A stretch of 64,000 bases of DNA, taken from the NCBI GenBank assembly GCA_951812955.1, contig OX638340.1, positions 2,912,001-2,976,000 on the forward strand. The letters run 5' to 3'. Shown piece after piece: positions 1 through 21,986 of the stretch (within the stretch, counting starts at the first letter, position 1; every line of letters begins with the position of its first letter). Origin of the DNA: an uncultured Gemmatimonadota bacterium (lineage in GTDB: Bacteria > JAAXHH01). The translations under genes were made by a program, and so were the position numbers. Below the pieces are notes generated by a model, which was not told the origin of the DNA, searched no databases, and worked only from the letters and a program-made list of their open reading frames with translations.

Positions 1-96
1 ATGTCACCTCGCGACCTTTCCCGGAGATGACGCTGGGCTTCTCAGCGATCTTCTAGCTACTCCCTTCGTCCACATGACTATCTGAATCTAAAGCAA

Positions 97-1548
97 ATGG
101 ATCACCATATGAACAGAGCGGCCTCGGCGCTGATTATCGCCGGCGGCGCGGGCGTGCGCCTTCAAACGGTAACCGGCCAGGTTCCCAAACCCTTGATGAA
201 GCTTTGCGGCGTGCCACTGATCAAGCGGATCATTTTGACAGCGGCCAGGGCCGGCATTTCGCGTTTCGTGATCGTAACGGGGTACCAGGCGGACCTCTTT
301 CACGAGGTCCTTTCGGACGATCCCGGCCTGGACGGCTGCCGGATCGAGTGGGTGCATAACGAGCGGTGGCACCTGCCCAACGGGGTTTCCGCCCTGGCCG
401 CCCGTTCCCGCCTGGCGGAACCGTTCGCGCTGCTCATGGCGGATCACCTCTTCGAGCAAAGTACGTTGGAGCGTCTGCTCGAGGAACCGGTCGCCGATGG
501 GGAATGTCTGCTCGCCGTCGACCGGAAAATCGATAGCGTGTACGACCTGGACGACGCCACCAAGGTCGAGGTGCGCGGGGACGAAGTTGTTCGCATCGAT
601 AAAGCGCTGCAGGAGTTCAATGCGGTAGACACGGGCATGTTCCTTTGTACGCCGGCACTGTTCGATGCCCTCGATGCCGTGGACGGACCGGAGGGGTGCG
701 CGTTGAGCGACGGCGTCCGGGCGCTGGCGGAAGACGGGAGGATACACGCCTTCGACGTCGGCGATGGATTCTGGCAGGACGTGGATACGCCCGAAATGCT
801 GGCGCACGGCGAAAAGAACCTCCTGGAGCGCCTAGTAAAGCCCACGGATGGCTGGATCGCCCGGTACTTGAACCGGCCGGTTTCGACCCGTCTCAGCCGA
901 TGGCTGGTCCGGACGCCGATCACCCCCAACATGGTGACCCTGGTCACCTTCCTGACCGGCCTGGCCGGAGCGTGGTTCGTGATGGGCGGCACGTACTGGA
1001 CGGTACTTCTTGGCGCCTTTCTTTTCCAGGTTTCGTCCATCCTCGATGGATGCGACGGGGAGGTGGCGGTCCTGACCTTCCGCGAGTCGAAATACGGTTC
1101 ATGGCTCGACACGATCACGGACAACCTGACCTACCTGGCGTTTTTCTCCGCCGTTGTCTGGGCCTATGCGGGCGGTTCCGACGTAACGGCAATCCGGTAC
1201 CTCGGCCTGGTATCCGTCGCCGTGGTGACCGCGTCGATTCTCGCGATGTACTACTACCTGATGCAGACCGGGGGAAGCGGAAGTCTCGTAAGGTTCAACC
1301 GCGCCTTCGAAAGACACGCCGTCGGGCGGCGCCGCAACCTCTCCGCCAGGCTGCTCAATCTGTTTCGGATGATGTGCAAAAGGGATTTCTTTACCTTGTT
1401 GTTGCTGGTTTTTGCCGCAATCGGACTCCTGAACTGGATGTTCTGGACCGTAACGGCCGGCGGCCTGGCCATGGGTCTGGCCATATTCATTTCGACGGGG
1501 CGGCTGTTGGCGCGGGACCGGGCGGTTGAGCAGATGGAGCGCTCATGA
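97..1548 (+). CDS. Bifunctional-type nucleotidyltransferase + CDP-alcohol phosphatidyltransferase (IPCT/DIPPS-like architecture)
   Basis: N-terminus ALIIAGGAGVRLQ...KPL resembles sugar/alcohol-phosphate nucleotidyltransferases. Hydrophobic C-terminal half carries the CDP-alcohol phosphotransferase motif DGCDGEVAV...G...G...D. The start may be ATG 109 (MNRAAS). The stop overlaps the next ATG (ATGA at 1545). Confidence 0.6.
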   Translation: MDHHMNRAASALIIAGGAGVRLQTVTGQVPKPLMKLCGVPLIKRIILTAARAGISRFVIVTGYQADLFHEVLSDDPGLDGCRIEWVHNERWHLPNGVSALAARSRLAEPFALLMADHLFEQSTLERLLEEPVADGECLLAVDRKIDSVYDLDDATKVEVRGDEVVRIDKALQEFNAVDTGMFLCTPALFDALDAVDGPEGCALSDGVRALAEDGRIHAFDVGDGFWQDVDTPEMLAHGEKNLLERLVKPTDGWIARYLNRPVSTRLSRWLVRTPITPNMVTLVTFLTGLAGAWFVMGGTYWTVLLGAFLFQVSSILDGCDGEVAVLTFRESKYGSWLDTITDNLTYLAFFSAVVWAYAGGSDVTAIRYLGLVSVAVVTASILAMYYYLMQTGGSGSLVRFNRAFERHAVGRRRNLSARLLNLFRMMCKRDFFTLLLLVFAAIGLLNWMFWTVTAGGLAMGLAIFISTGRLLARDRAVEQMERS

Positions 1549-2318
1549 GCGGATTACTGTACCATGTACGGGGACTTTTTACCCTCCGGATCAGGAAGGA
1601 TCTCAACTTCCGCAGGGTCCAGGAAACGGTCCCGGCGCTGCGCTGGCTGAAGCCGCGCAGGGGCGAGCGGATTCTCGATATAGGCTGCGGAGAAGGGACC
1701 TATGATTACCGGGTCGCCATGCGAGGCGCCGAGGTATTCGGTTTAGATTTGAACCGGCACCAATTGCGGCGTGCCGCGTCCTATCACAAGACCCCTTCGA
1801 CGGGATTCTTCTGTGCCGATGCGGGCGCGTTCCCCGTTCGCTCGGGACAGTTCGACACGGTCATGAGCCTGTGCGTCTTCGAGCACCTGCCGGACGACCG
1901 ACAGACGCTGAGGGAGATGTGGCGCGTATTGCGGCCCGGGGGACGCATCCTGTTGACGCTGGACAGTCTGAGCCTCGGGGGGATCGGCGAGGCGTGGCGC
2001 GACGAGCACCGGGAACGTCACAGCGTCCTTCAATTCTATTCGCATCCGTCGGTCGGCTCGTTGCTGGAGGCGTGTGGGTTCAGACTGATAAGACACCGCT
2101 ACCTGCTTCGTTCGAAGCTGGACCTGGCGCTGATCCGGTTGAGCTATGCTACCGAGCGCATGCACGCGATCCCGGCGGCGCTGGTCCGATTGGGGCTGGT
2201 ATCGATCGGCCGGGCAGTGTCTGCGGTTTTTAACCTGTTCACGAAAAACCACGGGGGATGGACGCTGTTGATCGAAGCAGACAGGAAGACCCCCCGTCCG
2301 GCGAATTCCCCACCATGA
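1545..2318 (+). CDS. Class I SAM-dependent methyltransferase
   Basis: ILDIGCGEGTY glycine-rich SAM-binding motif followed by acidic residue and VMSLCVFEH. The start overlaps the upstream stop. Confidence 0.6.
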   Translation: MSGLLYHVRGLFTLRIRKDLNFRRVQETVPALRWLKPRRGERILDIGCGEGTYDYRVAMRGAEVFGLDLNRHQLRRAASYHKTPSTGFFCADAGAFPVRSGQFDTVMSLCVFEHLPDDRQTLREMWRVLRPGGRILLTLDSLSLGGIGEAWRDEHRERHSVLQFYSHPSVGSLLEACGFRLIRHRYLLRSKLDLALIRLSYATERMHAIPAALVRLGLVSIGRAVSAVFNLFTKNHGGWTLLIEADRKTPRPANSPP

Positions 2319-3868
2319 AGCGTACCCTTGAGCAAACGGTTCCGGACCGGTCCGACACCGACGCATCGGCGATCGCCCGGGGCGCGGCCGTCAATTTCAT
2401 CGGAACGGTGGCGCGGCTTACCAAGTCCGTGTCGTTCATCGTCCTTACGCGGCTGTTCGGCGCCGAGATTTTCGGCCTGTACATGCTCGGATGGACCATC
2501 GTGGATCTCGTGGGAAAGGTGGCCCAGTTCTCGTTGGACAAGGGCTTGATCAATTTCATCCCGCGTATGCGCGAGGACGGGAAGAAGGACGCCATCCACC
2601 GAATCATCGCGCAGGCCCTGGGCGTGGGCCTGCTGCTGAGCGTTGGGGTCGGCGCCGCGCTATATGTCGGCGCGCCCGCGCTGGCCGAAGGGCTGCTCGA
2701 AAAGCCACGGCTCACCGGCATGCTGCGGTTGTTGGCGATCGGACTGCCGCTAATCGCCCTGACCCACATCATTTTGGGCGTCACCCGGGCTCACAAAGTC
2801 ATGAAGTACGACGCCATGGTCCGGGGCGCGGTCGAGCCGCTGGTGCTATTCGGGGCGGCCTGCGCCTTGTTCTACTGGGGCTGGCGCACCTACGGCATCG
2901 CCGCGGCCCACCTGGCCGCGCTGACCGGCGGCCTGCTGTTCGCCGTTTACGTGTTCACCAGGTTCTATTCCTGGCGTGCCTGTCTCGTCCACCTGCGCGA
3001 ACTGCGTTTCGTCACTCCGCTGACCCGATTCTCGCTGCCGGTAATGGGCTATGAACTGGTCTACATGGCCATGATACGTCTTGACGTGCTCATGGTCGGC
3101 TACTTCCTGCCGGCGGCGCAGGTGGGCATCTACGTGATCGCGGTCGAAATCGCCTTGCTGACCAAGAAGGTCCGCCAGTGGTTCGACCCGATTTTCAGTC
3201 CCATCGTCGCCGAACTGAATCACCGCAACGACCTGCCGCGGCTGGAGCGCAACCTCAGGCTGGTCACCCGGTGGGTCCTGACCATCGGCGTGGGGTTCCT
3301 CTGCGTCATAGCACTGATCGGCAATGAATTGCTGGGGCTGTTCGGTCCGGCATTCGTCACCGGGTTCATGGCGATGGTCGTCCTGGCCATGAGCCAGGTC
3401 GTATATGCCGCCATGGGTTCTGGCGATACCGTGCTCATCATGTCGGGCCGGCCCTATCTGAATCTCATCAACACGGTCGTGGTCGTAGCAGTGAATTTCG
3501 CCCTGAACCTGTGGCTGATACCATCCCTGGGCATCCTGGGCGCCGCCCTGGGAACGCTGGTATCCTTCGGCCTGCTGACACTAACGCGCCTGGTCGAGGT
3601 ATACCACCTGTTCCGGATCCATCCCCTGGACTGGCGCATTTTGAAGCCCTGCGCCGCAGCGGTCGTCGCCTTCGCATGCGCGTACATGGCGGGGGCCTAC
3701 GCGCCTGATGCCCCGTGGTTGCGCATGGCCGCGCTGCCTCTGATTTTCCTGGCCCCCTATCTCGGTGTGCTGTTCCTGATGGGTTTGGAAGAGGATGACC
3801 GGATCGTGCTCCGGCGCCTGCGGGGGCGGTGGGCACGAAGACGTGGGCACCGAGCTTCAGCGCCATGA
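2315..3868 (+). CDS. MOP-superfamily polysaccharide/oligosaccharide flippase (Wzx-like)
   Basis: About 14 predicted TM helices with the typical Wzx/polysaccharide-biosynthesis-protein layout. ATG 2315 (MKRTLEQ) overlaps the methyltransferase stop (ATGA). The track ORF starts earlier at 2258. Confidence 0.55.
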   Translation: MKRTLEQTVPDRSDTDASAIARGAAVNFIGTVARLTKSVSFIVLTRLFGAEIFGLYMLGWTIVDLVGKVAQFSLDKGLINFIPRMREDGKKDAIHRIIAQALGVGLLLSVGVGAALYVGAPALAEGLLEKPRLTGMLRLLAIGLPLIALTHIILGVTRAHKVMKYDAMVRGAVEPLVLFGAACALFYWGWRTYGIAAAHLAALTGGLLFAVYVFTRFYSWRACLVHLRELRFVTPLTRFSLPVMGYELVYMAMIRLDVLMVGYFLPAAQVGIYVIAVEIALLTKKVRQWFDPIFSPIVAELNHRNDLPRLERNLRLVTRWVLTIGVGFLCVIALIGNELLGLFGPAFVTGFMAMVVLAMSQVVYAAMGSGDTVLIMSGRPYLNLINTVVVVAVNFALNLWLIPSLGILGAALGTLVSFGLLTLTRLVEVYHLFRIHPLDWRILKPCAAAVVAFACAYMAGAYAPDAPWLRMAALPLIFLAPYLGVLFLMGLEEDDRIVLRRLRGRWARRRGHRASAP

Positions 3869-3940
3869 CGTTAGTGGTCCGGCGCCTGCGGGGCCTGTGC
3901 GGCCCGCCGCCTCTACCCGGTAAGAGGCCAAGCGCAAGCC

Positions 3941-5284
3941 GTGGGATGGAGGGGAGCGCGTACTTGGGACATCTGTCGACGGGGAGACTTGGTTATTTTG
4001 AATTACAGCGTGGTATTGTTCGCCGATACGGATGACATCACAGCCGGCGCCGGTCGATCGGTTTACGGCATTTCTCTGTTGGAACGGCACCTTCGGGTCT
4101 TTGCTTCCCTGGGGGCCCGGCGGGTAACCGTGGTCGGACCTGCACCCGGCCGGGGTTCGAAGGTCCGAGTCGACGGATTCGACGAACGCTGGTTCGCTGA
4201 GCTGCGCGCCGTCGACTGCGTGGGGGCCGAAGAAAGCCCTGCCCGCTGGCTGCCCGGGAAGGACGAAGTGGCCCTGGTGCTGGACGCCCACCACCTGTAT
4301 GACCCGCGTGTCCTGCGGGCCATGGTCGAAGGCGGCCCGAACCGTAAAGCCGCGGACTCGGCAGTCAGGGAATCCTGCAGGCTGCTGGTGGCCGACGCAG
4401 ACCTGCTCGCAAGCCTCACAGCGTGCTGGAACGGCTCCGAATCACTATGGTCATCGCTGGACTCGGCGCGGGAATCGACCTGCCCGGTATTCGATCTCCG
4501 CGAAATGGACCCCTATATCGTGGATCTGCGCCGAAGCCTGCCCCCCTGGTGGGTGGTCCTGGGTTCGGACCGGAAAGCGCGCCGGGCGGAGGCGCTTCTG
4601 ATCAATGCCGCACAGAAGGGAACGCTGGATTTTCCGGCGGAATTCATACATCCACCCCTGGAGAACCTGCTTACAAAGTGGATCTCGGCCGGAACCGTGA
4701 CGCCTAACCAGGTAACCACCCTCACCATATTGCTGGCCTTCCTGACCACCGGCCTGCTGGCCGTGGGGCAATCGGGCCCGGGTTACACGGCCGCCGGACT
4801 GATCATCGCCTTCATCGTCGGAGTACTGGACGGGGTCGACGGCAAGTTGGCCCGTGTTACGGTGCGATGCACGCGGTTCGGGGACCGATTTGAACACATC
4901 CTGGACGTGATCTGGGAGCTGACCTGGTACTGGGCCCTGGGGTGGATGCTCGGCGGCAGTGGCGATGTGGCGGGGCCTTTCGTGCTCGCTTCGGTAATCA
5001 CGCTCTTTTATCTGCTTGACAAGACGGCCACGGGGATGTTCAAGTCACGGCAGGGAATCGAACTGTTTGACTACGAGCCCATGGATCGCTTTTTTCGCCG
5101 TATCGGCGCCCGGCGCAACACGAACGTCCTGCTGCTGCTGGGTGGTACGGCGGCAGGTATGCTGGAGGAAGCGTTTACATGCGTGGCCATCTGGACGGTG
5201 ATTACGGCGGCGTTTCACTGGACGCGGGCGATCTGGGTGCTGTCGAAGCCGACATCGGCCGGCGATGTGAAACGGCTTCCTTAA
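3941..5284 (+). CDS. CDP-alcohol phosphatidyltransferase with degenerate N-terminal nucleotidyltransferase-like domain
   Basis: C-terminal motif DGVDGKLARVTVRCTRFGDRFEHILD matches D-x2-DG-x2-AR-x8-G-x3-G-x3-D. The N-terminal 220 aa align with the fold of the 97..1548 N-domain but lack GxGxRL. The start is GTG or TTG and uncertain. Confidence 0.5.
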   Translation: MGWRGARTWDICRRGDLVILNYSVVLFADTDDITAGAGRSVYGISLLERHLRVFASLGARRVTVVGPAPGRGSKVRVDGFDERWFAELRAVDCVGAEESPARWLPGKDEVALVLDAHHLYDPRVLRAMVEGGPNRKAADSAVRESCRLLVADADLLASLTACWNGSESLWSSLDSARESTCPVFDLREMDPYIVDLRRSLPPWWVVLGSDRKARRAEALLINAAQKGTLDFPAEFIHPPLENLLTKWISAGTVTPNQVTTLTILLAFLTTGLLAVGQSGPGYTAAGLIIAFIVGVLDGVDGKLARVTVRCTRFGDRFEHILDVIWELTWYWALGWMLGGSGDVAGPFVLASVITLFYLLDKTATGMFKSRQGIELFDYEPMDRFFRRIGARRNTNVLLLLGGTAAGMLEEAFTCVAIWTVITAAFHWTRAIWVLSKPTSAGDVKRLP

Positions 5285-5301
5285 CGCCAGCCACGATTTC
5301 T

Positions 5302-5337
5302 CCCGGGCATGGGCCGGCCCATGCCCGTTAATTTGGA
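5302..5337 (+). terminator. Intrinsic terminator-like GC palindrome after 3941..5284
   Basis: cccgggcatgggcc/ggcccatgcccg perfect palindrome followed by ttaatttgg. Confidence 0.45.
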
Positions 5338-5363
5338 TCAAAAAGTGGAATTGTGCGTCTAAT

Positions 5364-6803
5364 ATGCTTGATAATGAGCGAGTCGGCCATGGCTGTGCGT
5401 CGACGCTTGTGCTAAGCGGAGGCATCGTGTTTCGTTTCCTGGTCCACATCCTGGCGGTATCTCTGATCACGGGGCCGGCGGTCGCACAGGGATCGGACCG
5501 TCCCGTACAGGCCGTCCAATCCGTCCGGATGACGCTGGAGCAGTGCGTGGACAGGGCGTTGACGGTCAGTCCTGATATCGAGCAGGCGGCCCTTGCCGTC
5601 GAAGGCCTGGAAGCCAGGTTGAGCGAAGCGAAATTTGCGGGCATCGCACCCCGGTTGCAGTGGACCAACATCTTCGGTCCGGCGCCCGGCATAAAAGGCG
5701 ATACAGAACGGGTCGAGACCATCCGGAGCGACCTGTCCGACCTGGGCGTTTTTTCCCGCACGCAGATCGAATTGGTCCAGCCGCTGTATACCTTCGGGAA
5801 GCTCAGCAATGCGAAGAAGGCGGCCGGATACGGTCTCGAGGCGGGCGAGGCCGCCGTGGAATCCAGGAAGCACGACGTGGCCTTCCAGGTTAAGAAACTG
5901 TTCTACGGACTCGTGTTGGCCCGTGAACTCAGGGAAATCATTCTGGAAAGCGAAGAAAGCGTACGTGAAGCCCGGGAGCGCGTCAACGAGATGATCGAGG
6001 AGGATTCGGAAGATGTCGGCCAGAACGACCTGTTGAAAATCGATGTCTTCGAGTATGAAGTGCAACAGAGCCGGGCGCGGGCCGAGAAGTCGATCGAAAT
6101 AGGGAAGGCGGCGCTGAAATCGGTGCTTGAAATCGATCGCTCCAGCGATTTCGATATCGTCGACACGACCGCGGAACCCAGTACGGCAGACCTCGACGGA
6201 CTGGAATTCTACATCGAACAGGCGAAGAACCGGCGGTACGACATCCGGCAGCTCAGGGCCGGCGTGCTGGCCCGCCGCGCGCTGCTGAAGGTAGCCCGGA
6301 GCGACTACTACCCCCAGATCGCCCTTGCGGGGTCCATCCAGTGGGGTATCGCGCCCCACCGGCCGGAACTCGACAATCCGTTCCTCAGGGACGAGTTCAA
6401 TTTCCTGCGGGGGGGCGCGGTGATTACCTTGCGGCAGAACTTCAATTTCGGCCTGACCCGCGCGAAGTACCAGGCCAGGAAAGTGGAGCTGGAAGCGCTG
6501 GTGACCAGGGAATCACAGGCGATGAACGCGATCGAACTGCAGGTGGAATCGACCTACCGGGACGTGATCGAGGCCCGTACCAACGTCGTCAACAGCGACC
6601 GGGCGCTTCGCTCCGCCAGGGCATGGCTGACATCGGCAAAGCTGGGCTTCGACATCACGGGAGACAGTTCGGAATTGCTGGACGCCTTCACCGCGCACGC
6701 GAAAATGCAACATGCACACCGGCAGTCGCTTTTCCAGTACCGGGTTTCGCTGGCCGAACTCGATCACGTAACCGGTAACGGGATTTCAAATGTGCGGCGC
6801 TGA
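5364..6803 (+). CDS. TolC-family outer membrane efflux protein (outer membrane factor)
   Basis: Two-repeat coiled-coil/beta architecture with typical OMF sequence (LTLEQCVDRAL...; the ATG 5364 frame reads MTLEQCV only if the internal M is used). Probable true start is GTG 5430 (MFRFLVHILAVSLITGPAVAQ signal peptide) preceded by GGAGG. Confidence 0.6.
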   Translation: MLDNERVGHGCASTLVLSGGIVFRFLVHILAVSLITGPAVAQGSDRPVQAVQSVRMTLEQCVDRALTVSPDIEQAALAVEGLEARLSEAKFAGIAPRLQWTNIFGPAPGIKGDTERVETIRSDLSDLGVFSRTQIELVQPLYTFGKLSNAKKAAGYGLEAGEAAVESRKHDVAFQVKKLFYGLVLARELREIILESEESVREARERVNEMIEEDSEDVGQNDLLKIDVFEYEVQQSRARAEKSIEIGKAALKSVLEIDRSSDFDIVDTTAEPSTADLDGLEFYIEQAKNRRYDIRQLRAGVLARRALLKVARSDYYPQIALAGSIQWGIAPHRPELDNPFLRDEFNFLRGGAVITLRQNFNFGLTRAKYQARKVELEALVTRESQAMNAIELQVESTYRDVIEARTNVVNSDRALRSARAWLTSAKLGFDITGDSSELLDAFTAHAKMQHAHRQSLFQYRVSLAELDHVTGNGISNVRR

Positions 6804-6824
6804 CACACGGAACGGAGGATGGTC

Positions 6825-7655
6825 ATGAAGAATCGACGTGCGGGGGCGGGCAGGACGCTCAGTCTGGTGGCTGGCACCGTCCTGTTGCTCATTGCCACGT
6901 TCATCGATCCGTCTTCCGTCCTTCGCACGGACTCAGCGGATAAAGGAACGCCGCCCCGATTTTCCGTGCTGGGGATCGACTCTTTTGTTCCGGCAGCCGC
7001 GCGGGCGGATCATCCTCAACGCCGCGATGATCGTCGTGCGTCCGTCCTCATCGATGGCTTCGACAGTTCGGCCCCGGGCAGCTTCCCCCTGACCTGGAAG
7101 GCCTGGCGGGGAGACGATGACCTGGCTCGAAAAACGTATACGATCCGGGAGGAAAACGGAAACCGGTATCTCCACGCCGCCGACGACGGCTCATCCATCA
7201 TCATTCGCAAGCAGCTTAGCGAATGGGATGCGAACGAATACCCGGTGCTGTCATGGCGCTGGAGGGCGAAGGTCCTGCCCGAAGACGGAGATGAACGCAT
7301 CGGTTCCAGGAACGACAGTTCAGTGGCCGTGTACGTGGTCCTGGATCAGAACTTCATCGGCGTGCCCAAAACCCTGAAGTACGTCTGGAGTACCACCCTG
7401 CCGGTCGGCACCCATCACCGCCGCGACGGTATTGGCCGTCCCCACGTGATCGTGCTCGAAAGCGGTACGGAGAAGCTCGGGGAATGGGTCAAGGAGTCGG
7501 TCGACGTGTATGCGGACTATGTCCGGATCTTCGGGAAAAAGCCGCCCCGGAAAGCCGTAGGGATCGGTATTCTTACGGATGGCAACGCGACGGGAACGGA
7601 CTCGAAGGGGGATTACGACGACTTCATGGTTCATCGCCGGAACACCGGGTCCTGA
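6825..7655 (+). CDS. Secreted DUF3047-like protein
   Basis: Signal peptide MKNRRAGAGRTLSLVAGTVLLLIA. The central WKAWRGDDD...LSWRWRAKVLP block resembles DUF3047, a family assignment from memory. GGAGG RBS 6 nt upstream of ATG 6825. Confidence 0.35.
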   Translation: MKNRRAGAGRTLSLVAGTVLLLIATFIDPSSVLRTDSADKGTPPRFSVLGIDSFVPAAARADHPQRRDDRRASVLIDGFDSSAPGSFPLTWKAWRGDDDLARKTYTIREENGNRYLHAADDGSSIIIRKQLSEWDANEYPVLSWRWRAKVLPEDGDERIGSRNDSSVAVYVVLDQNFIGVPKTLKYVWSTTLPVGTHHRRDGIGRPHVIVLESGTEKLGEWVKESVDVYADYVRIFGKKPPRKAVGIGILTDGNATGTDSKGDYDDFMVHRRNTGS

Positions 7656-7690
7656 CCCGTCAATTCCGGCCGGAAGGTAGGAGGAAGAAA

Positions 7691-8290
7691 ATGCATGCTA
7701 TTTGCCGCGCACTCCGCCCCTTGGGACCACTTGTCGCCTGGGCGGCGGTGTCGTTGATCGCTTTCGGGAGTAACGCGCAGGAATACTCGCCCATCGAGAC
7801 CCTGAAACAGCGGGACGCCGCGTTACTCGGCCTGGATGGAGCCACCACCGAAGCGGCACGGGACAGTCTCGTGCGCCGGGCCGTCGTCGAGGGGTTCGAT
7901 TTCGTACGACACAGCCGTATCTCGCTCGGCAGGCACTGGCGGGAGAGGACGGACGCGGAACAAGAAGAATTCGTTTCGGTCCTGCGTAAGTGGACGGAAA
8001 ACCGGGCCCTCGACAAGTTGCGCAAGCGGTCGGACAGGACGACTTATGACGGAGAGGAGACCCGGGGCAGCAGGTCGCTGGTGAGAACCACGGTATGGTA
8101 CAAGGGTACCAAAACACTCGTCGACTACAAGATGGAGTTGCAGGAAGGGCACTGGCTCATTTACGACATGGTCATCGACGGGGCGAGCGTCGCGCTGGCC
8201 AACCGGGACGCATTCTACAAGAAGATCAGCAGGACCTCCTACGACGAATTGCTCGATACCCTACTCGCAAAAACCCTTGAAATAGAGTAG
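7691..8290 (+). CDS. MlaC/Ttg2D-family periplasmic lipid-binding protein
   Basis: Signal peptide followed by the C-terminal block HWLIYDMVIDGASVALANRDAFYKKI...LLDTLLAK typical of MlaC/toluene-tolerance Ttg2D. AGGAGG 6 nt upstream of ATG 7691. Confidence 0.5.
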   Translation: MHAICRALRPLGPLVAWAAVSLIAFGSNAQEYSPIETLKQRDAALLGLDGATTEAARDSLVRRAVVEGFDFVRHSRISLGRHWRERTDAEQEEFVSVLRKWTENRALDKLRKRSDRTTYDGEETRGSRSLVRTTVWYKGTKTLVDYKMELQEGHWLIYDMVIDGASVALANRDAFYKKISRTSYDELLDTLLAKTLEIE

Positions 8291-8370
8291 TATTTCTTGT
8301 ATATTTCCGGGTCTGTGAGATATACTCGTTTCAAGCGGTATATTCATGTCCTAAGTTTTTAGGAGACAGA

Positions 8371-9813
8371 ATGGCGAAGACGGTATACGACCGGTGTATC
8401 TTTTTCCTCGTCGACGGCGCCCGCGAAGACGTCATGCGGGAAATGACCGAGGCGGGCGAACTGCCTGCCCTGCGGCGCTACGTGCTGGACAGGGGAGACT
8501 ACCGAAAGGCGGTGACTTCGTTTCCGTCCACGACCGGTCCGGCCCATGTGCCCTTTCTGACCGGTTGTACGCCCGGTTCGTGCAATCTCCCCGGAATCCG
8601 CTGGTTCGACCGGTCCCAGCCCAATGGTCTCACCCATTTCCGCCAGGCGCGCAGTTACGTGGGTCCGGGAGGCCTGTATATCGACCAGGACCTCAAGGAT
8701 GAAGTCCACACCATCTTCGAGTACTTCGAGCGCCCGGCGGGGGTCTTCAGTTTTGTGAACAGGGGATTGGGCATATTCGAAAACCGGACGCTGCTGACCA
8801 GGGGCTGGTACTGGCTATACGCCCATTACTCCGGCCAGTGGCAGGCCGTGGACGACGCGGCCTGGCGGTACATCGACCGGGCCGTTGACCAGGGCGCCGA
8901 TTTCCTGTCGGTCGTATTCCCCGCGGTGGACGAATACTCGCATTACACCGATCCATTTTCGGACGCCACGTTGAACGCGTACCGGGAATTCGACCGGGGG
9001 CTCGGCAGGTTGGCGGAGCGGCTTCAACGGCAGGACAGACTGGACAGTACGCTTTTCGTGATCTCCAGCGATCATGGCCTGACCTCTACGCACACGCACT
9101 TCGAACTTTGGTCGTTTTTTGACGAATTGGGATTCAACACGCTGTATTATCCCCGGATCCTGCGCAACGGATGCGACGCGGCAACTATGGTCTCGGGCAA
9201 CGGCATGGCGCATATCTACCTCAAGAAAGGCGACTCCTGGGAAGAAAGGCCTTCCTACGAGGAGATCCGCACGCTGGGGGAAACGGACCCGATCGAAGCC
9301 CTGCTGGGGCAGGAGGCGATCGACCTTGTGGCGGCGGTCCAGGATGACTCGGTCATCGTCTGCGGGCGCCGGGGGATCAGTGAAATTAGGGAGACGCCCG
9401 AAGGCATCGCGTACCGGGTTATTGAGGGCCAGGATCCGTTCGGCTATGGAGGCATCCCGGCTGAAGCGTCCGATGAGCAATTGCTCTCCGCCACGTTCGA
9501 CACGGACTATCCCGACGCGCCTTACCAATTGCTGCGTGTCCTCGGTTCTCCGCGGTCGGGCGATTTGATCGTCAGTGCGCGAAAAGGCTACGATCTGAGA
9601 TACCGGTACGAGCATCCTGAGCACAAGTCGACCCATGGTTCACTGCATCGCGACCATATGCACGTTCCCTTGATGATGAATACGGAGATTGCGGCGGACC
9701 ACGTGCGCACCGTGGACCTCTTCCCCGCCATGCTGAACCTGACGGGGCGTTTGGTCGAAGGAACTATTGACGGCAGAGATTCTGTCACCGCCGCTTCGCG
9801 TGCGGTGGCGTAG
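8371..9813 (+). CDS. Alkaline-phosphatase-superfamily phosphodiesterase (type I phosphodiesterase/nucleotide pyrophosphatase-like)
   Basis: FFLVDGAREDV, FPSTTGPAHVPFLTG and ISSDHGLT metal-ligand motifs of the NPP/AP superfamily. AGGAGA RBS upstream. Confidence 0.6.
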   Translation: MAKTVYDRCIFFLVDGAREDVMREMTEAGELPALRRYVLDRGDYRKAVTSFPSTTGPAHVPFLTGCTPGSCNLPGIRWFDRSQPNGLTHFRQARSYVGPGGLYIDQDLKDEVHTIFEYFERPAGVFSFVNRGLGIFENRTLLTRGWYWLYAHYSGQWQAVDDAAWRYIDRAVDQGADFLSVVFPAVDEYSHYTDPFSDATLNAYREFDRGLGRLAERLQRQDRLDSTLFVISSDHGLTSTHTHFELWSFFDELGFNTLYYPRILRNGCDAATMVSGNGMAHIYLKKGDSWEERPSYEEIRTLGETDPIEALLGQEAIDLVAAVQDDSVIVCGRRGISEIRETPEGIAYRVIEGQDPFGYGGIPAEASDEQLLSATFDTDYPDAPYQLLRVLGSPRSGDLIVSARKGYDLRYRYEHPEHKSTHGSLHRDHMHVPLMMNTEIAADHVRTVDLFPAMLNLTGRLVEGTIDGRDSVTAASRAVA

Positions 9814-9822
9814 GAGTAATCC

Positions 9823-10914
9823 ATGTCCGAGCAGGTCCAGATTGCCCCGGCGCCGGAACCTGTCCCGCCGTCTCCCGCGCTGCCCGTACTGCAACCGGAC
9901 TCGGGCTATCTCGGGTACGACCGGGCGCTGTTGCGGCCCATGTCCCTCGGCACTAAGCTCCGAGCCTTGTTCAAGTACCTCTGGGTACGATTGAAGGGCG
10001 GACCGATGGCGGTGAACATGGAGGTGACCTATCTGTGCAACGCCACCTGCGATTTCTGTGATTACTGGAAGACGAAACGTTCAGGCAAGCTGGGCGATTA
10101 CGACTACATGGAGGCGCTCAGGAAGCTGAACCCCCTGACGGTCACGCTGACCGGCGGGGAACCCATGATCAACAAGCGACTGCCCGAGGCGGTCAGACGC
10201 ATCAAGGATGGCCTGGGATTCGTTTATATCGGCATGGTCACCCACGGATCTCTGCTGACCGTAGAAAAGGCCATGGCCCTGTGGGATGCCGGCGTGGACC
10301 ACATTTCGATCTCGTTGAACTATATCGGCCGCGAACATGACGAGGAACGGGGTATCGCGGGTTTGTACGAGCATATCTCCACGCTCGTTCCCCAGCTGAC
10401 GGCCCGAGGGGTCAACGTGATCTTCAACACGGTGATCATGCGTGAGAACCTGGACCACGTCGTACCCATCGCGCACCTGGCGCGTTCTATGGGCGCGAAG
10501 GTTTCCTACAGTTGCTACAGCGACTACAAGAATGGGAACGAAACCCACCTTGTGGATCCCGGTCACGAGGAGCAGTTGGAATCCGTGATCGAGGATCTGA
10601 TCTACCAGAAATCCCGATTGGGAAACATCGTCAATTCCGCCTGGTACTTGCGCCGGATCCCCGATTACTTCCAGGATGCGCTTCCAAGGTCCTGCACGGC
10701 AGCGGGCAAGTGGCTGGTGCAACTGACTCCCGACGGCAACGTAAAACCCTGTGCGGAACTGCCCGTAATGTCCGGGTATGCCGATTTCAAGCGGGTTTCA
10801 ACGAAGATCGACTGCAACCGGTGCTGGTACAGTTGCCGGGGTGAGACCGAATCTTCGTTGAAGCTTGTAAGGGTGCTGGAAGGCCTGGGCAGGGCCTGGC
10901 GCAGTAGCGCTTAA
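9823..10914 (+). CDS. Radical SAM enzyme with C-terminal Cys-rich (SPASM/twitch-like) region
   Basis: CNATCDFCDYW CxxxCxxC motif, TLTGGEPM SAM-binding motif. C-terminal C...CNRCWYSCRGE cluster. Pro/Ala-rich 60-aa N-terminal extension. Confidence 0.7.
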   Translation: MSEQVQIAPAPEPVPPSPALPVLQPDSGYLGYDRALLRPMSLGTKLRALFKYLWVRLKGGPMAVNMEVTYLCNATCDFCDYWKTKRSGKLGDYDYMEALRKLNPLTVTLTGGEPMINKRLPEAVRRIKDGLGFVYIGMVTHGSLLTVEKAMALWDAGVDHISISLNYIGREHDEERGIAGLYEHISTLVPQLTARGVNVIFNTVIMRENLDHVVPIAHLARSMGAKVSYSCYSDYKNGNETHLVDPGHEEQLESVIEDLIYQKSRLGNIVNSAWYLRRIPDYFQDALPRSCTAAGKWLVQLTPDGNVKPCAELPVMSGYADFKRVSTKIDCNRCWYSCRGETESSLKLVRVLEGLGRAWRSSA

Positions 10915-13900
10915 ACTACTACCGGCGCCAGTTCCCGGGCGAGGATCTTCCCGGTATGGGACAACAGGGACGCTGCGATATCCTCGGGCGTACCCGCGGC
11001 AACCACGTGACCGCCCCGGTCACCGCCTTCCGGACCTAGATCGACGATCCAGTCGGCCGTCTTGATGACGTCCAGGTTGTGTTCGATGACGAGCACGGTG
11101 TTCCCCTTGTCCACCAGCCTGTTGAGGACGTTCAGCAACTTGCGGATGTCGTCGAAGTGCAGCCCGGTGGTCGGCTCGTCCAGCAGGTAGACGGTCTTGC
11201 CGGTACCCGGCCGCGAGAGCTCCTTCGCCAGCTTGACGCGTTGCGCCTCGCCTCCCGAGAGCGTAATGGCCGACTGGCCGAGCTTGATGTAGTCGAGTCC
11301 CACGTCGTAAAGCGTCTGCAACATACGCCGGATGCGGGGCACGTTCTCGAAGTGCTCCAGGGCTTCGGCCACGGTCATCTCCAGCGTATCCGCGATCGTC
11401 TTACCCTTGTAGGTCACTTCCAGCGTCTCCTTCATGTAGCGCTTGCCGTCGCACACTTCGCAGGTCATCCACACGTCCGCCAGGAAATGCATCTCGATCT
11501 TGCGCACGCCGAGTCCCTGGCAGGCCTCGCACCGTCCAGCGGGCACGTTGAAGCTGAACCGTCGGGGTTCGTAGCCCCGCATCCGAGCCTCCACGGTCCG
11601 GGAGAAGAGCGACCGGATCGGCGCGAAGAGCCCGACGTAGGTGGATGGATCCGACCTGGGGGAATGGCCGATCGGGGTCTGGTCGATGTTTATGACCTTG
11701 TCCACGAACCGCAACCCCTTGATTTCATCGTGGGGTCCAGGGTTTACCTGGGCGCGGTGCAGGGTGGAGGCCAGCACAGGATGAAGGATGTCGTTGACGA
11801 GCGAGCTCTTTCCCGAACCGGACACCCCTGTGACGCAGATGAAAACGCCAAGGGGCAACGTCACGTCGATGTTCTTCAGGTTGTTCTGGCGCGCCCCGAG
11901 GATGCTAAGCCTGTTCCGGCCCGGCTTGCGGCGGTCCCGCGGCACTTCGATGCGAAGCCTGTTTCCCAGGTAACTGCCGGTGAGTGAAGTCTCGAGTTCC
12001 CTGAGGGCGGCGGGGGTGCCTTCGCCCACGATCCGGCCTCCGAACACCCCCGCTCCCGGTCCGAAATCCACCAGGTTGTCGGCATGCTCCAGCGTGTCGC
12101 GGTCGTGTTCGACCATGATCAGCGTATTGCCGAGATCGCGCAGGTTCTCCAGGGCATGGATCAGCCTGAGGTTGTCCCGCGGGTGAAGCCCGATCGTGGG
12201 TTCGTCCAGCACGTAGAGCACGCCGGTCAGCCCCGATCCGATCTGGCTGGCCAAACGGATTCGCTGTGCTTCGCCGCCCGATAGCGAGGGCGCCCGGCGG
12301 TCGAGGGTCAGGTATTCCAGCCCCACGTCGAGGAGGAAGCGCATGCGGTTTCTGATTTCCTTCATCACCTCGCCCACGACTTCCCGCTGCGGCGCCGAGA
12401 GTTTCAGGCCTTCGATGAAGTCCAGGGCACGGTCGGTGGACATGGCGCATAGCGCCGCAATGGACACGCCGTCGATCAGCACGGAAAGGCTTTCGGATCG
12501 GAGCCGTCCGCCTTCACATGCCGAGCAGGGCGTCGGCTGCAGGAGGCGGGCCAGTTCGGGAAAGCGGTTCGCGTAGCGGGCGACCAGTTCCACGGCCGGG
12601 AAGATGCCCCGGAACTGGAAGGACAGGCCGGGGACCCGTTGGTCCTCTATCCACCGGTCGCTGCCATAGAGCAACACCTGGAGCTGTTCTGCCGACAGCG
12701 CTTCAACGGGCGTCTCCAGGTTGAATCCCTGGGTGGACGCCACCAGTTCAAGCAGGTCGAGTATGGACCGTTCGCCCACCGTGCCTTCCTCCCAGATCGC
12801 AGCCGCGGCGTCCCTTATGGATTTCGAACGATCGGGAATCAACAGGTCGAGATCGATGCCGGGCTGGGTTCCGAGTCCCTCGCAATCGGGGCACATGCCC
12901 GCCCGGTGGTTGAATGAGAAGCTCTGGGGCGAGAGTTCGTCGTAACTGACTCCGCAGGCGGGACACGAATAGTACCGGCTGAAGCGGATATCGTGTGGAC
13001 CGGCGGAATCCGGTTCCTGCACCTCGGCGATCAGCAATCCCCCCGATAGGTCCAATGCCGTCTCCACCGAATCGGCCAGGCGCTGTCGGACGTCGCCCTG
13101 CATGACGATCCGGTCTACCACCACGCACAGTTCGTGGCGCCGCCGCCGGTCGATCTGAATGTCCTCTTCGAGCCGCCGCAACACGCCATCGATGCGTACC
13201 CGGATGAACCCGTTCCGGCGGGCCCTGTCCAGAAGGGCATCGTATCCCTCGGCGCCTTCGGGTTCCAGCGGCGCATGCAGCGTGGCGCGGGTCTGCTCCG
13301 GGAGGGTCATGATGCGGTCCACGATCTGGCTGGGCGTCTGCGCGCCGATGGGAACGCGGCAGGCGGGGCAGTGGGGCGCGCCGACCAGGGCGTAGAGTGC
13401 GCGCAGGTACTCGTAGATCTCCGTAATGGTGCCCACCGTGGAGCGTGGGTTCCGGCCCGGCGCCTTCTGTTCGATGGATATGGCCGGGGAAAGGCCGACG
13501 ATATGGTCCACCTTCGGCTTCTGCATCTGCTGGAGGAACTGGCGCGCGTAGGCTGAAAGGGATTCCACGTACCGTCTCTGGCCTTCCGCGTAGATCGTAT
13601 CGAGGGCCAGGGAAGTTTTCCCGGAGCCGGAAACGCCCGTGAACACGGTCATCCGGTCCCGGGGGACAGCCACGGTGAGGTCACGCAGGTTGTGCTCCCG
13701 CGCGCCGCGCACGGTGATCTCCCGTATGTGGCCGTCTCCTGCTGCGTCCTGCCTGACCGGTTTAGGAGCCACGGGGAGCGCCCGGGGCCGAAGCGCCTTC
13801 TCCAGGATCCGGCCCGTGGACGATCCGTCGACGCCCGCCACGGTCTCCGGCGTTCCCTCCGCGATGACGCGGCCGCCCGCGTCGCCGCCCTCCGGGCCCA

Positions 13901-16613: not shown

Positions 16614-16844
16614 GGGAATCAAGCCGGATTCAGCGGGTCGTTGGATCAGGGCGAACGGCGGCGGCACAGCAAGCGAAAGATGCTATACGGGTGTTTAGAA
16701 ATCAAGGTATTTTCAAGGTGGACCGTGAATGGCGGAAAAGACGCTTGTTCTATGCCGTTACCGGAGTTAACGTGGTGTCGGCCGGTCCATCAGAATGCGG
16801 CGCGCCGGCCCGCCGCAGCCGATGTCGGAAACGGGACGATCATC

Positions 16845-17570
16845 ATGTCGAACGACTGGTATATCGAATACTTCGACGAAGACTACTACCATTTCGACCA
16901 CCACGAGGATACGGATCTCGAAGTGGACGGACTCGCGCGCCTGTTGGACCGCCGCGAGAGGAAAAGGATACTGGACATTGGCTGCGGCTACGGACGGGTC
17001 AGCACACCGTTGCGGAAACGCGGCTATCGGGTCGTGGGCTACGACCTGTCCCCCGCCCTGCTGAAACGGGCCCGTGAAGGGGATCCCGGGGGAATCTGGG
17101 TCAGGGGAGACATGCGTGAACTGCCCTTTGCCGGAGCATTCGACACGGCCATCAGCCTGTTTAATGCCTTCGGGTACTTCGAAGAAGAAGAAGAAAACTT
17201 CAGGGTCCTGAAGTCTGTTTCGGAGGCATTGCACCCCGGCGGGCTGTTCGTATGCCAACTCGTCAACCGGGACTACCTTGTCCGCCGGTTCGCCGCCCAG
17301 GAAGTCCACCGCCGGGGAGACCTGGTCATACTGGAAGAGCGCGATTTCGATGCGATCGCGAACAGGGTGCTAACCAGGACGACCGTGATCAGTGGCGCGG
17401 ACAGACGGGAGTACGCGTCTTCCATCCGTGTCTACACCGTGACCGAGCTGGACCTGCTCCTGGCCGCTGCCGGCATGACGATACGGGAAGTCCACGGCGG
17501 ACTCGATTTCAGACCCTACGACTGGGATACGAACCAGTTGGTCATCATCGCCGAAAGAACCGATCGGTAG
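16845..17570 (+). CDS. Class I SAM-dependent methyltransferase
   Basis: ILDIGCGYGRVSTPL and VGYDLSP motifs. Divergent from uvrA. The upstream part of the track ORF (16572-) lacks homology. Confidence 0.6.
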   Translation: MSNDWYIEYFDEDYYHFDHHEDTDLEVDGLARLLDRRERKRILDIGCGYGRVSTPLRKRGYRVVGYDLSPALLKRAREGDPGGIWVRGDMRELPFAGAFDTAISLFNAFGYFEEEEENFRVLKSVSEALHPGGLFVCQLVNRDYLVRRFAAQEVHRRGDLVILEERDFDAIANRVLTRTTVISGADRREYASSIRVYTVTELDLLLAAAGMTIREVHGGLDFRPYDWDTNQLVIIAERTDR

Positions 17571-17680
17571 AGGATCCCGGGTGGCTCCGGTTTCCAATAA
17601 GCTTGACAAGACCCTGGTCCAATCTTAGGATTCAATGTCATTTCATTCTGTCTGAATACGGGAAAAACAAAGGATTCTAC

Positions 17681-18724
17681 ATGGCATCGGATCTGTTGCG
17701 CGTTGGCGTGATCGGATTGGGGTTCGGTCAATATCACATCCGTGGTTACCAGGCCTGTAACGGTGTGACGGTTGAGACGATCTGCAGCCGGACAACGGAA
17801 ACCGCGCAACGCGTGGCGAAGGACTACGGGATAGCCGAGACCCAGACGGATTACCGGGCGGTACTGGATCGCAAGGATATCGATGCCGTCAGTATCTGCA
17901 CGCCGGTGAACCTGCACAAGCAGATGGTCATCGAGGCCCTGGAATCCGGTAAACACGTCCTGTGCGAGAAACCGCTCGGGTTGAATACCGCGGAAGCCGG
18001 GGAAATGCTTGAAAGCGCGCGCCGGAGCGGCATGGTGCACATGACCAACTTCGGCTGGCGGTTCAATGGACCGGCCTTTCGCATGAAATCCCTGCTGGAC
18101 GAGGGTTACATCGGCAAGACCTACCATCTCAATGCCCGGTACATGATGGGTTACCGGGCAAGCCCCCGGAAGGAGCACAGCTGGCGTGAGCGGCGCATGG
18201 CGGCGGGACTCGGCGCCATGGGCGATCTCGGTGTACACCTGATCGATATGACACGGTGGTGGATCGGAGAATTCGAACGGGTATGTTCGCTGATGCACAC
18301 GCTCATCCCGGAACGTCCCGCGCCGGACTCATCCACCATGCGGGAGTCTGAACTGGAGGACGCCTGCGCTTTTATCTCACAGATGCAGGACGGGGTCCAG
18401 GCCGTTTTCCACGTGAGCCGTTGCGCCCTGAGCACGGACTACATCCACATAGATATCCACGGCAGCAATGGAGCCCTGCAGTTCCAGTTCCTGCGTGACA
18501 CCATGCAGGCCAGTCTGAAAGGCGGACAGGGCCTGCGAGGAAACATCCAGCCCCTGTCCGTGCCCGCCCGGAAGGGCGCGTTGTCTCCACAGCGACACTT
18601 TATCGACGCGATACGCTCCGGTGGGGAAGCCAATCCGAGTTTTCACGAAGGCTTCTGCGTGCAGCAGGTCGCTGACGCCATCACCGCTTCCGAGGAGAAA
18701 CAGGCATGGGTATCCCTCTTATGA
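17681..18724 (+). CDS. Gfo/Idh/MocA-family NAD(P)-dependent oxidoreductase
   Basis: LRVGVIGLGFGQYHI Rossmann N-terminus and EKPL motif. Confidence 0.7.
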   Translation: MASDLLRVGVIGLGFGQYHIRGYQACNGVTVETICSRTTETAQRVAKDYGIAETQTDYRAVLDRKDIDAVSICTPVNLHKQMVIEALESGKHVLCEKPLGLNTAEAGEMLESARRSGMVHMTNFGWRFNGPAFRMKSLLDEGYIGKTYHLNARYMMGYRASPRKEHSWRERRMAAGLGAMGDLGVHLIDMTRWWIGEFERVCSLMHTLIPERPAPDSSTMRESELEDACAFISQMQDGVQAVFHVSRCALSTDYIHIDIHGSNGALQFQFLRDTMQASLKGGQGLRGNIQPLSVPARKGALSPQRHFIDAIRSGGEANPSFHEGFCVQQVADAITASEEKQAWVSLL

Positions 18725-19626: not shown

Positions 19627-19636
19627 TGGAGCCTTC

Positions 19637-19981: not shown

Positions 19982-20051
19982 TGCCATGGATATGGATCCT
20001 TCCGTGTCTTGAAGCGCACGGAGGTCTATGGTCCGTGAAAGGTGGGATGTC

Positions 20052-21140: not shown

Positions 21141-21146
21141 GCGCCC

Positions 21147-21974: not shown

Positions 21975-21986
21975 AGCCTGTTCCGG

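Follow-up and report, generated by a model that had tools for sequence, protein, structure and literature searches.

In a 64,000-nt stretch of DNA from an uncultured Gemmatimonadota bacterium (GCA_951812955.1, contig OX638340.1, positions 2,912,001 to 2,976,000; hereafter the window, in whose numbering all coordinates are given), we found a cluster of nine co-directional genes, g1 to g9 (97-10914), arranged in three modules. With a probability that we put at about one half, this cluster builds an unusual, probably inositol-type phospholipid head group, tailors and flips the resulting lipid, and moves it to the outer membrane. The reading is built on domain identities, catalytic motifs, predicted localisation, synteny and domain fusions, and from these we infer what the substrate is, how the steps are ordered, which way transport runs and which reactions g8 and g9 catalyse. 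An earlier note on positions 5364-10914 had described a compact operon of five co-directional genes, encoding a TolC-like outer-membrane factor, a DUF3047 protein, an MlaC-like protein, an alkaline phosphatase (AP)-superfamily enzyme and a radical SAM enzyme. Those five plus-strand open reading frames (ORFs), g5 to g9, were borne out by the ORF listing and by Pfam, all above gathering scores, but they are only the back end of the unit: four further same-strand genes directly upstream (g1-g4, 97-5284), its biosynthetic core, had been missed (Table 1). Literature searches within the accessible library found no publication describing this gene set.

The products of g5 to g9 are 479, 278, 199 (counted from 7691), 480 and 363 aa long, and their genes are separated by 15, 35, 80 and 9 nt. 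The individual ribosome-binding sites that had been noted for all five hold for g6, g7, g8 and g9, each of which has an upstream site of the GGAGG type, but not for g5, where no clear Shine-Dalgarno sequence was seen. The convergent 4-bp overlap at the end of the cluster, between the stop of g9 and that of the ORF at 10911-16667, was confirmed.

Table 1. Genes of the cluster and sequence signals in its gaps, in window coordinates
Feature	Position	Strand	Assignment
g1	97..1548	+	bifunctional IPCT/DIPPS-like: N-terminal nucleotidyl(cytidylyl)transferase and C-terminal CDP-alcohol phosphotransferase membrane domain
g2	1545..2318	+	class I SAM-dependent methyltransferase (Methyltransf_11/25, 78 and 73 bits)
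g3	2258..3868	+	MOP-superfamily (Wzx/Polysacc_synt-like) flippase; Polysacc_synt 68.7 bits, Polysacc_synt_3 62.9 bits
g4	3941..5284	+	second CDP-alcohol phosphotransferase; CDP-OH_P_transf 38.4 bits; N-terminal ~200 aa without assigned domain
g5	5364..6803	+	TolC-like outer-membrane factor; OEP (PF02321) 135.7 bits, two repeats; signal peptide
g6	6819..7655	+	DUF3047 (PF11249), 125.7 bits (cut-off 27)
g7	7691..8290	+	periplasmic MlaC-like lipid-binding protein; PF05494 99.3 bits (cut-off 26)
g8	8371..9813	+	NPP-type (phosphodiesterase/nucleotide pyrophosphatase) AP-superfamily enzyme; PF01663 102.5 bits
g9	9823..10914	+	radical SAM enzyme of an uncharacterised SPASM/twitch-like family; PF04055 68 bits (cut-off 29.5)
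GC-rich hairpin	5304..5327	+	10-bp stem, then TTAATTTGG; g4-g5 gap; top terminator-like match in 1-11500
~33-nt motif TTGGATCAAnAGGTGnACGGnCGCGTCTAATAT	5328-5364		directly 5' of g5; kept in relatives, in 2-3 tandem copies in some (duplicated in L007, L012, L022)
sigma-70-like promoter motif	8277..8305	+	TTGAAA-N17-TATATT (extended -10, TGTATATT), upstream of g8

The order of all nine genes, together with the convergent double UvrA gene that follows them, was kept at 60-97% identity in approximately 27 loci (L004-L030). Their sources are metagenome-assembled genomes of marine and sponge origin that bear the label Latescibacterota or Gemmatimonadota and have chromosomes of some 3.9 Mb. Among these close relatives, g1 was syntenic in all and g2 in all but L023. 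A sister lineage (L027, L029, L093 and L094) carries two extra genes between g4 and g5 (2917-5437 in L029), one for a second, unrelated radical SAM protein of 328 aa, which matches g9 in the core alone, at 26% identity, and one for a 525-aa protein with multiple transmembrane segments that is 31% identical (E 5e-60) to a PMT_2/GT-C gene of locus L170. Full nine-gene synteny is confined to one lineage, at identities of at least 60%. Because the same order is found in some 27 loci and parts of it recur in other phyla, the arrangement is not one of chance. The neighbourhood searches thus found the genes syntenic elsewhere, where the earlier note had allowed that they might not be.

For more distant relatives, we surveyed the best 80 of at least 365 radical SAM relatives in GTDB genomes and the best 80 of at least 462 AP relatives in metagenomes. 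In other phyla the modules were found apart, as OEP-(DUF3047)-MlaC with or without an HpnN-like MMPL gene, as OEP-MlaC-AP, as AP-radical SAM, and as MIPS-IPCT-like-radical SAM. Latescibacterota showed both OEP-DUF3047-MlaC-radical SAM (L032) and OEP-g1-like-MlaC-MMPL-radical SAM-polyprenyl synthase; Calditrichota had AP-radical SAM-aldolase-PlsC, and Ignavibacteria and Zixibacteria AP-radical SAM-LPG_synthase_TM. A locus of Methylomirabilota (L041) combined an HpnN-like MMPL gene and squalene-hopene cyclase (SHC) with MIPS-g1-like-radical SAM, MIPS standing directly before the g1 homologue, and in a locus of Dadabacteria MIPS lay at most 9 kb from the radical SAM gene. Also observed were AP-DedA-DedA-x-radical SAM, MlaC-MMPL-radical SAM, OEP-DUF3047-MlaC-MMPL (L088) and, in an order and orientation different from the window, a set of nucleotidyltransferase, g4-like transferase, radical SAM, OEP, MlaC and AP genes (L108). 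Among 71 AP loci below 50% identity, a genuine MlaC gene was directly upstream in 20, a genuine OEP gene upstream in 10, and a radical SAM gene present in nine, mostly adjacent; the contigs of AP loci span 36-69% GC, and those with MlaC or OEP upstream 36-63%. OEP homologues likewise adjoined MlaC, DUF3047 or AP genes in many distant loci.

Taken over L032, L036, L041, L088, L108, L170, ten triad loci and nine AP-plus-radical SAM loci, the same families re-associate at 22-47% identity, with varied order, orientation and GC content. Envelope-lipid functions predominate in the neighbourhoods of the homologues (HpnN-like MMPL, MlaC, LPG_synthase_TM, DedA, PlsC, GT-C, MIPS, CDP-alcohol transferases and squalene-hopene cyclase), and this agrees with the suggestion in the earlier note that the genes make or modify, and also export, an unusual envelope lipid or phospho-compound. 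The neighbouring MMPL proteins had HpnN and the sterol exporter BstA as their best models, with no curated cut-off reached, and every MlaC-like protein of these loci matched only HpnM in NCBIfam, again under the cut-off. Several other recurrent neighbours (CysS, SDR, YjeF, TsaE, GlnE, BatA, DUF58, PriA, PEPCK, ETF, TetR, AdoHcyase and dNK) were set aside as lineage synteny and not partners.

Three domain fusions connect the same families. In P0207, MlaC is fused to DUF3047 with both domains above their Pfam cut-offs. P0254 joins a nucleotidyltransferase that is 49% identical to residues 10-245 of g1 (E 7e-68) to a radical SAM domain of the g9 family, and the genes that follow in its operon (L170) are those for LPG_synthase_TM, PMT_2/GT-C and a CDP-alcohol transferase of the g1/g4 kind. 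In P0294, the partner of a more distantly related g9-family domain is a DedA/VTT membrane domain. Other candidates were discarded: P0205 and P0206 have N-terminal extensions for which an MlaC identity could not be established, the match of P0209 as an MlaC-DUF3047 fusion was weak at 23.6 bits, which leaves P0207 as the solid case, and P0246, an AP C-terminus joined to a radical SAM N-terminus, was set aside as a likely frameshifted read-through.

For the head-group module, the assignment of g1 was drawn from Pfam (NTP_transferase/NTP_transf_3 plus CDP-OH_P_transf), from its top NCBIfam model, the IPCT/DIPPS equivalog NF041135, which it matches over its full length at 237 bits (cut-off 580), and from its top PDB sequence match, the Archaeoglobus fulgidus IPCT/DIPPS structure 4MND (E 4e-48, residues 10-378). 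Its N-terminal domain would use CTP to activate an alcohol phosphate, for which the likeliest candidates are myo-inositol-1-phosphate and its close cyclitol or polyol relatives; an inositol-type alcohol is favoured because of the affinities of g1 and the adjacency of MIPS in the Methylomirabilota locus. The C-terminal domain of g1 and the product of g4 would then act as DIPPS/PIPS-like membrane transferases, handing the phospho-alcohol to one or more acceptors. The g4 protein is a paralogue of the C-terminal half of g1 (27% identity to residues 225-420, E 2e-13), and its residues 204-423 match the DIPPS, AIPS and PIPS models. A methyl group would be added by g2, which reached no NCBIfam equivalog (the DVU_1556 family came closest, with 78 bits where 155 are needed), and the flippase g3 would carry the lipid-linked product over the inner membrane. 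The true start of g3 is probably near 2320, and alignments of its relatives begin at about residue 21 (coverage 0.96).

The radical SAM enzyme g9 has a CNAxCDFC motif (C72-x3-C76-x2-C79) that is invariant in 45 sequences, and five invariant C-terminal cysteines arranged as CX13GX4C (C291...G305-x4-C310) and CX2CX3C (C331-x2-C334-x3-C338, 'CWYSCRGE'). A full SPASM motif has seven cysteines (CX9-15GX4C, a gap, CX2CX5CX3C, a gap and C), of which a twitch domain keeps a partial set; the full seven-cysteine motif is absent from g9. Its AlphaFold2 model (pLDDT 83) has a partial TIM barrel, as a beta/alpha core, and a twitch/SPASM-like tail, with generic Foldseek matches only, at TM scores of 0.5-0.6 (SkfB, BlsE, CteB, SuiB, PqqE, MoaA, viperin, AbmM and DesII). 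The NCBIfam check that the earlier note had proposed placed g9 in no characterised housekeeping family; its scores were far below the equivalog cut-offs of PqqE (90 against 381), PTO1314 (89.7 against 306), MoaA (56.5 against 284) and HpnH (39.8 against 225), and an identity as HpnH, PqqE, MoaA or Tes was rejected on scores. A PDB profile search gave at most 69 bits, and neither PDB sequences nor Foldseek gave a relative that names the substrate. By exhaustive phmmer among 1.84 billion sequences, the family is small and sharply delimited, with 57 representatives (50%-identity clusters) at E<=1e-30. It resembles nothing in the catalogue of a 2026 review of lipid-modifying radical SAM enzymes (PMC13459092), which lists Tes, Mss, Gms, Grs, Gmm, Cds, HpnH/J/P/R, Jaw5 and the ladderane enzymes. 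The tie of g9 to a nucleotidyltransferase through fusion P0254 suggests a nucleotide-activated substrate, and this fusion together with the fold relatives that use nucleotide substrates suggests that g9 acts on the CDP-alcohol or its precursor. Working in the cytoplasm, the enzyme would apply radical chemistry to the phospho-alcohol or to its CDP-activated form.

For g8, the earlier note had proposed an AP-superfamily enzyme, which our analysis refines to the NPP type and places in the cytoplasm. Alignment with homologues (nine, down to 39% identity) showed D15, T54/T55, D187/H191, D234/H235 and H418/H422/H429 to be invariant, so that by sequence the protein keeps the complete NPP catalytic set of bimetal ligands and Thr/Ser nucleophile. 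A signal peptide was found in none of the nine aligned homologues, and the ORF begins 14 residues before the first metal ligand, with no in-frame upstream extension possible. From the missing signal peptides we conclude that g8 is a cytoplasmic and not a periplasmic enzyme. Identities as a secreted or ecto-NPP, or as a periplasmic phosphotransferase of the EptA/LtaS/OpgB type, were rejected as there is neither a signal peptide nor an N-terminal transmembrane anchor, and a PDB sequence search returned only weak NPP and PMH matches, including a weak one to ENPP7. The enzyme would cleave a phosphoester or phosphodiester, for example the extra phosphate left by DIPPS/PIPS-type reactions, which need a step of this kind. 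A shorter AP enzyme of about 334 aa, which is a different AP subtype, is encoded on the opposite strand in Dadabacteria and Thermodesulfobacteriota (8206-9210, minus strand, in L002/L003; also L051, L056, L077 and L080), 0.8-2.5 kb upstream of the radical SAM gene and separated from it by two small conserved ORFs of about 55-98 aa.

Predicted signal peptides mark g5, g6 and g7. The start of g5 is ambiguous (ATG 5364 or GTG 5409), and no lipobox is visible in the protein; an identity as a type I secretion TolC (TIGR01844, 50.6 bits against a cut-off of 225) or as a NodT-type lipoprotein outer-membrane factor (TIGR01845, 15.1 against 210) was rejected. For g7, the start is most likely ATG 7691, because a ribosome-binding site (GGAGGAAGAAA) stands upstream and a signal peptide (MHAICRALRPLGPLVAWAAVSLIAFGSNA/QE) follows; the first start of the ORF, at 7484, is unlikely. 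The likeness to HpnM that the earlier note had raised stands as a lipid-trafficking context but not as an identity: HpnM (TIGR03481) is the sole NCBIfam match of g7, at 55.3 bits where 160 would be required, and SHC, HpnN and HpnH are all absent from the window. The g6 protein begins with a membrane anchor or signal, continues as a disordered linker and, in its AlphaFold2 model (pLDDT 83), forms a beta-sandwich from about residue 75 whose Foldseek matches (CBM11/4/30/61, GH11/12 and the beta-sandwich of glucuronyl C5-epimerase) give it the modelled likeness of a carbohydrate-binding module (CBM). In the proposed route, MlaC-like g7 would bind the acyl or hydrophobic part of the lipid in the periplasm, CBM-like g6 would bind or present the polar head, and g5 would take up the lipid at the outer membrane, in an arrangement that would be analogous to HpnN/HpnM for hopanoids and BstA/B/C for sterols. 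A literature search on DUF3047 found the family merely listed, with no function given. One stand-alone DUF3047 protein (P0239, locus L087) is encoded amid phosphate-acquisition genes (Porin_5, a PstS-like PBP_like_2, an Na/Pi cotransporter and Pst permeases), which hints that some DUF3047 proteins bind phosphate-containing ligands; P0237 and P0239 both lie in unrelated neighbourhoods, so the family is not always tied to MlaC.

A more far-reaching version of the phospholipid reading, which we hold tentatively and consider somewhat unlikely, makes the g9 family a new lipid-pathway radical SAM enzyme that would remodel CDP-inositol or its phosphate before transfer into an undescribed head group, and makes OEP-DUF3047-MlaC a new outer-membrane route in which a CBM-like protein would read that head group, with the system spread over Latescibacterota, Gemmatimonadota, Zixibacteria, Calditrichota, Ignavibacteria, Methylomirabilota and others.

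Several observations weigh against the phospholipid reading. The score of g1 is well under the IPCT/DIPPS equivalog cut-off, and by-eye alignment shows altered CDP-alcohol transferase signatures in both transferases, relative to the DG(x)2AR...G(x)3D(x)3D consensus: the motif of g1 (window 1050-1075) reads DGCDGEVAV, with Val for the Arg of DGxxAR, and that of g4 (~4850-4930) reads DGVDGKLAR...GDRFEHILD, with Glu for the third Asp. These changes could mean unusual donor or acceptor specificity. There is no MIPS homologue within the 64-kb window, so the alcohol of g1 is putative. Among the Pfam-scanned ORFs of window positions 1-28.6 kb we found no MlaD/MCE, MlaE, ABC ATPase (MlaF), MlaB or MlaA, and no SHC, MMPL, LPG_synthase_TM or GT-C homologue was found in the window; within the ranges searched, then, no inner-membrane MMPL or Mla ABC component feeds MlaC. 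A cytoplasmic g8 paired with periplasmic partners is explained only indirectly, and whether the lipid is exported or retrieved is not readable from sequence. Most of the distant radical SAM homologues (Dadabacteria and Thermodesulfobacteriota) lie amid housekeeping genes, with no lipid gene by tblastn, and many AP and DUF3047 homologues stand alone. Finally, the surveyed loci are best-scoring subsets that are phylogenetically non-independent, ORF calling on the fetched loci was crude, and Pfam was run on representatives only.

Among other explanations, the one we treat as unlikely has the phospho-alcohol or a sugar built on undecaprenyl phosphate in the cytoplasm, flipped by g3 and transferred by a periplasmic GT-C enzyme to lipid A, lipopolysaccharide, capsule or another glycolipid, with the OEP, MlaC and DUF3047 proteins handling the finished glycolipid. 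It would suit the membership of g3 in the MOP/Wzx family, the typical flippases of polyprenyl-linked units, the GT-C/PMT_2-like 525-aa protein of the sister lineage, a GT4 glycosyltransferase in the Gemmatimonas locus, the polyprenyl synthase genes that adjoin radical SAM or AP genes in six loci, and the CBM-like fold of DUF3047. However, the window lacks a GT-C gene, no glycosyltransferase was seen among its scanned ORFs of 1-28 kb, and MlaC-type cargo consists of diacyl or hopanoid-like lipids and not of polyprenyl-linked glycans; we also know of no action of DIPPS/PIPS-type CDP-alcohol phosphotransferases on polyprenyl phosphate. That g1, g4 and g8 would instead make a soluble polyol-phosphodiester, similar to di-myo-inositol phosphate (DIP) or glycerophosphoinositol, with g8 as the phosphatase of a phosphorylated intermediate and OEP-DUF3047-MlaC adjacent but functionally separate, we judge improbable. 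The nearest characterised relative of g1 is the DIP-making IPCT/DIPPS, the phosphatase that the DIP pathway calls for could be g8, a cytoplasmic protein whose phosphoesterase site is intact, and the three blocks have apparent promoters of their own and are found separately elsewhere. Yet AP homologues mostly lie directly 3' of MlaC and OEP and not of CDP-alcohol transferases, a flippase such as g3 would be needless for a soluble product, and in other lineages the partners of the radical SAM and nucleotidyltransferase are membrane-lipid proteins (LPG_synthase_TM, GT-C, DedA, PlsC and MMPL). DIP is, moreover, a solute of hyperthermophiles, unlike which the lineage here comes from sponges and seawater.

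A reversal of the transport direction, in which OEP and MlaC would bring exogenous or mislocalised outer-membrane phospholipid to the inner membrane and g8 would remove the head group for recycling or phosphorus scavenging, also has little probability in our view. In its favour, the general view of the Mla pathway is that it runs in the retrograde direction, many loci have the OEP-MlaC-AP triad with no biosynthetic genes, and the eukaryotic NPP relatives include lipid phosphodiesterases, ENPP7 being a weak PDB match of g8. One group of loci has genes for a FadR/YsiA-type TetR regulator and ETF after the triad, although these may be mere lineage synteny; both in the window and in its relatives, head-group biosynthetic genes flank the triad on one side and the radical SAM gene on the other, and no inner-membrane importer is encoded nearby. 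Very improbable is a hopanoid-type pathway in which the radical SAM enzyme would extend or modify a triterpenoid side chain as HpnH/HpnJ do, the AP enzyme would strip phosphate from a phosphoribosyl or phospho-intermediate, and MlaC and OEP would export the product as proposed for HpnM/HpnN. The SHC and HpnN-like MMPL (574 bits against a cut-off of 752) beside MIPS-g1-like-radical SAM in L041, the HpnN-like MMPL genes in L036, L038 and L088, the exclusive NCBIfam match of the MlaC-like proteins to HpnM, and the recurrent polyprenyl synthase and HpnL-like (LPG_synthase_TM) genes point that way, as does a 2025 preprint that proposes HpnL, HpnM and HpnN as hopanoid-associated (PMC12324291). By comparison, the window proteins fall far short of HpnH (40 against 225) and HpnM (55 against 160), genes for SHC, HpnN and squalene synthesis are missing from the window, SHC occurred in one of 56 distant radical SAM loci, and known hopanoid pathways include no step for the CDP-alcohol chemistry of g1 and g4. 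Least probable of all is a chance row of unrelated co-directional genes conserved through the close kinship of the genomes; the restriction of nine-gene synteny to one lineage and the lack of other partners around most of the distant g6, g8 and g9 homologues would agree with this, whereas the re-association of the families in new orders at 22-47% identity and differing GC, and the three independent domain fusions, argue against it. We consider the cluster best filed as a lipid biosynthesis-plus-trafficking locus.

Returning to the cluster itself, the description as a single operon probably does not hold. The hairpin at 5304-5327 is a possible terminator or boundary of the g1-g4 unit; in relatives, the g4-g5 gap measures 79-220 nt and contains GC hairpins and a conserved motif just before g5. 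That motif, TTGGATCAAnAGGTGnACGGnCGCGTCTAATAT, may be a promoter or a regulator-binding site, and its overlap with the annotated ATG at 5364 suggests that the true start of g5 is GTG 5409. The only two promoter-like matches in 1-11500 are both in the g7-g8 gap, where the hexamers of the conserved TTGAAA-N17-TGTATATT element before g8 were kept in 11 of 12 relatives with a variable spacer; all promoter and terminator calls are consensus matches. Though weak as evidence, the gap motifs suggest three units, g1-4, g5-7 and g8-9, and agree with the separate occurrence of these blocks in other phyla. An Rfam scan of the whole window gave no RNA family at gathering score and, therefore, no riboswitch in the 80-nt gaps.

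Beyond the cluster, the convergent gene that had been called uvrA does encode UvrA, though at double length: the minus-strand ORF at 10911-16667 specifies a 1918-aa protein of two complete UvrA units fused in tandem, the second from about residue 985. It is kept at the same position in all close relatives (71-99% identity), and in L004 the Pfam domains UvrA_inter and UvrA_DNA-bind each occur twice in it. Farther on, at 16572-23459, follow genes for a methyltransferase, two GFO_IDH_MocA (inositol-dehydrogenase-family) oxidoreductases, an SDR protein and a class-V aminotransferase, the same set as in L004; these might supply or modify a cyclitol for the cluster. Locus L169 has GMC and GFO_IDH_MocA oxidoreductases upstream of OEP-DUF3047. 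The window also contains a minus-strand ORF of 2147 aa at 28797-35240.

Inositol-type and other unusual bacterial phospholipids, and the outer-membrane routes of non-canonical lipids, are poorly known outside a few model organisms, and the cluster offers a genetically coherent, multi-phylum candidate for both an unusual phospholipid and its route to the outer membrane. It gives a context to three families without known function (DUF3047, the cytoplasmic NPP-type enzyme and the small radical SAM family), which the three Rosetta-stone fusions make experimentally approachable. If the phospholipid reading is true, a CDP-alcohol-linked radical SAM step would be added to lipid head-group chemistry, and the cluster could explain unknown polar lipids of sponge symbionts and sediment bacteria.

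Among known systems, IPCT/DIPPS of A. fulgidus (AF0263), a bifunctional CTP:inositol-1-phosphate cytidylyltransferase and CDP-inositol:inositol-1-phosphate transferase, shares its two-domain architecture with g1, which aligns over both domains and differs in its sub-equivalog score and in the altered Arg of the CDP-OH motif. For Bacteroidetes, Heaver et al. 2022 (PMC9246714) proposed an unconfirmed 'alternative' phosphatidylinositol pathway through CDP-inositol, and those clusters contain an LPG-synthase-like flippase gene, as do loci related to the window cluster. Neither DIP synthesis nor the Bacteroidetes cluster has the second transferase paralogue, the methyltransferase, the MOP flippase, the radical SAM enzyme, the NPP-type enzyme or the outer-membrane transport module found here, and the window cluster belongs to a mesophilic lineage that is marine or sponge-associated. 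Calditol synthase Cds and HpnJ provide precedents for radical SAM remodelling of the polar head of a membrane lipid, a sugar or cyclitol (PMC13459092). Genetically, g9 is tied to head-group activation genes. HpnJ is a B12-binding radical SAM enzyme, which g9 is not, and the g9 family is bacterial and small, with a five-cysteine C-terminal domain. BlsE, viperin, MoaA, DesII and AbmM, which use nucleotide-linked substrates, have their fold in common with g9 at identities of just 15-22%.

For lipid trafficking, g7 is a bona fide PF05494 MlaC-family protein, as in the Mla system (MlaFEDB-MlaC-MlaA/OmpC), but is paired instead with a TolC-like outer-membrane factor and DUF3047, to which it is sometimes fused. 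The Hpn system (HpnN of the RND/MMPL type, the MlaC-like HpnM, the AglD/LPG-synthase-TM-like HpnL and the radical SAM enzymes HpnH and HpnJ) and the Bst sterol transporters follow the same logic as the window cluster, in that a lipid-tailoring radical SAM gene stands beside an MlaC-like carrier, a flippase-like protein and, elsewhere, an HAE3/MMPL exporter, and signal peptides mark the periplasmic carriers in both. The window proteins score under all equivalog cut-offs of the Hpn system, and their chemistry is CDP-alcohol based. At the outer membrane, finally, where the hopanoid proposal (PMC12324291) has an MlaA-like HpnS or the lipocalin HpnT, the partner here is a TolC-like barrel together with DUF3047.

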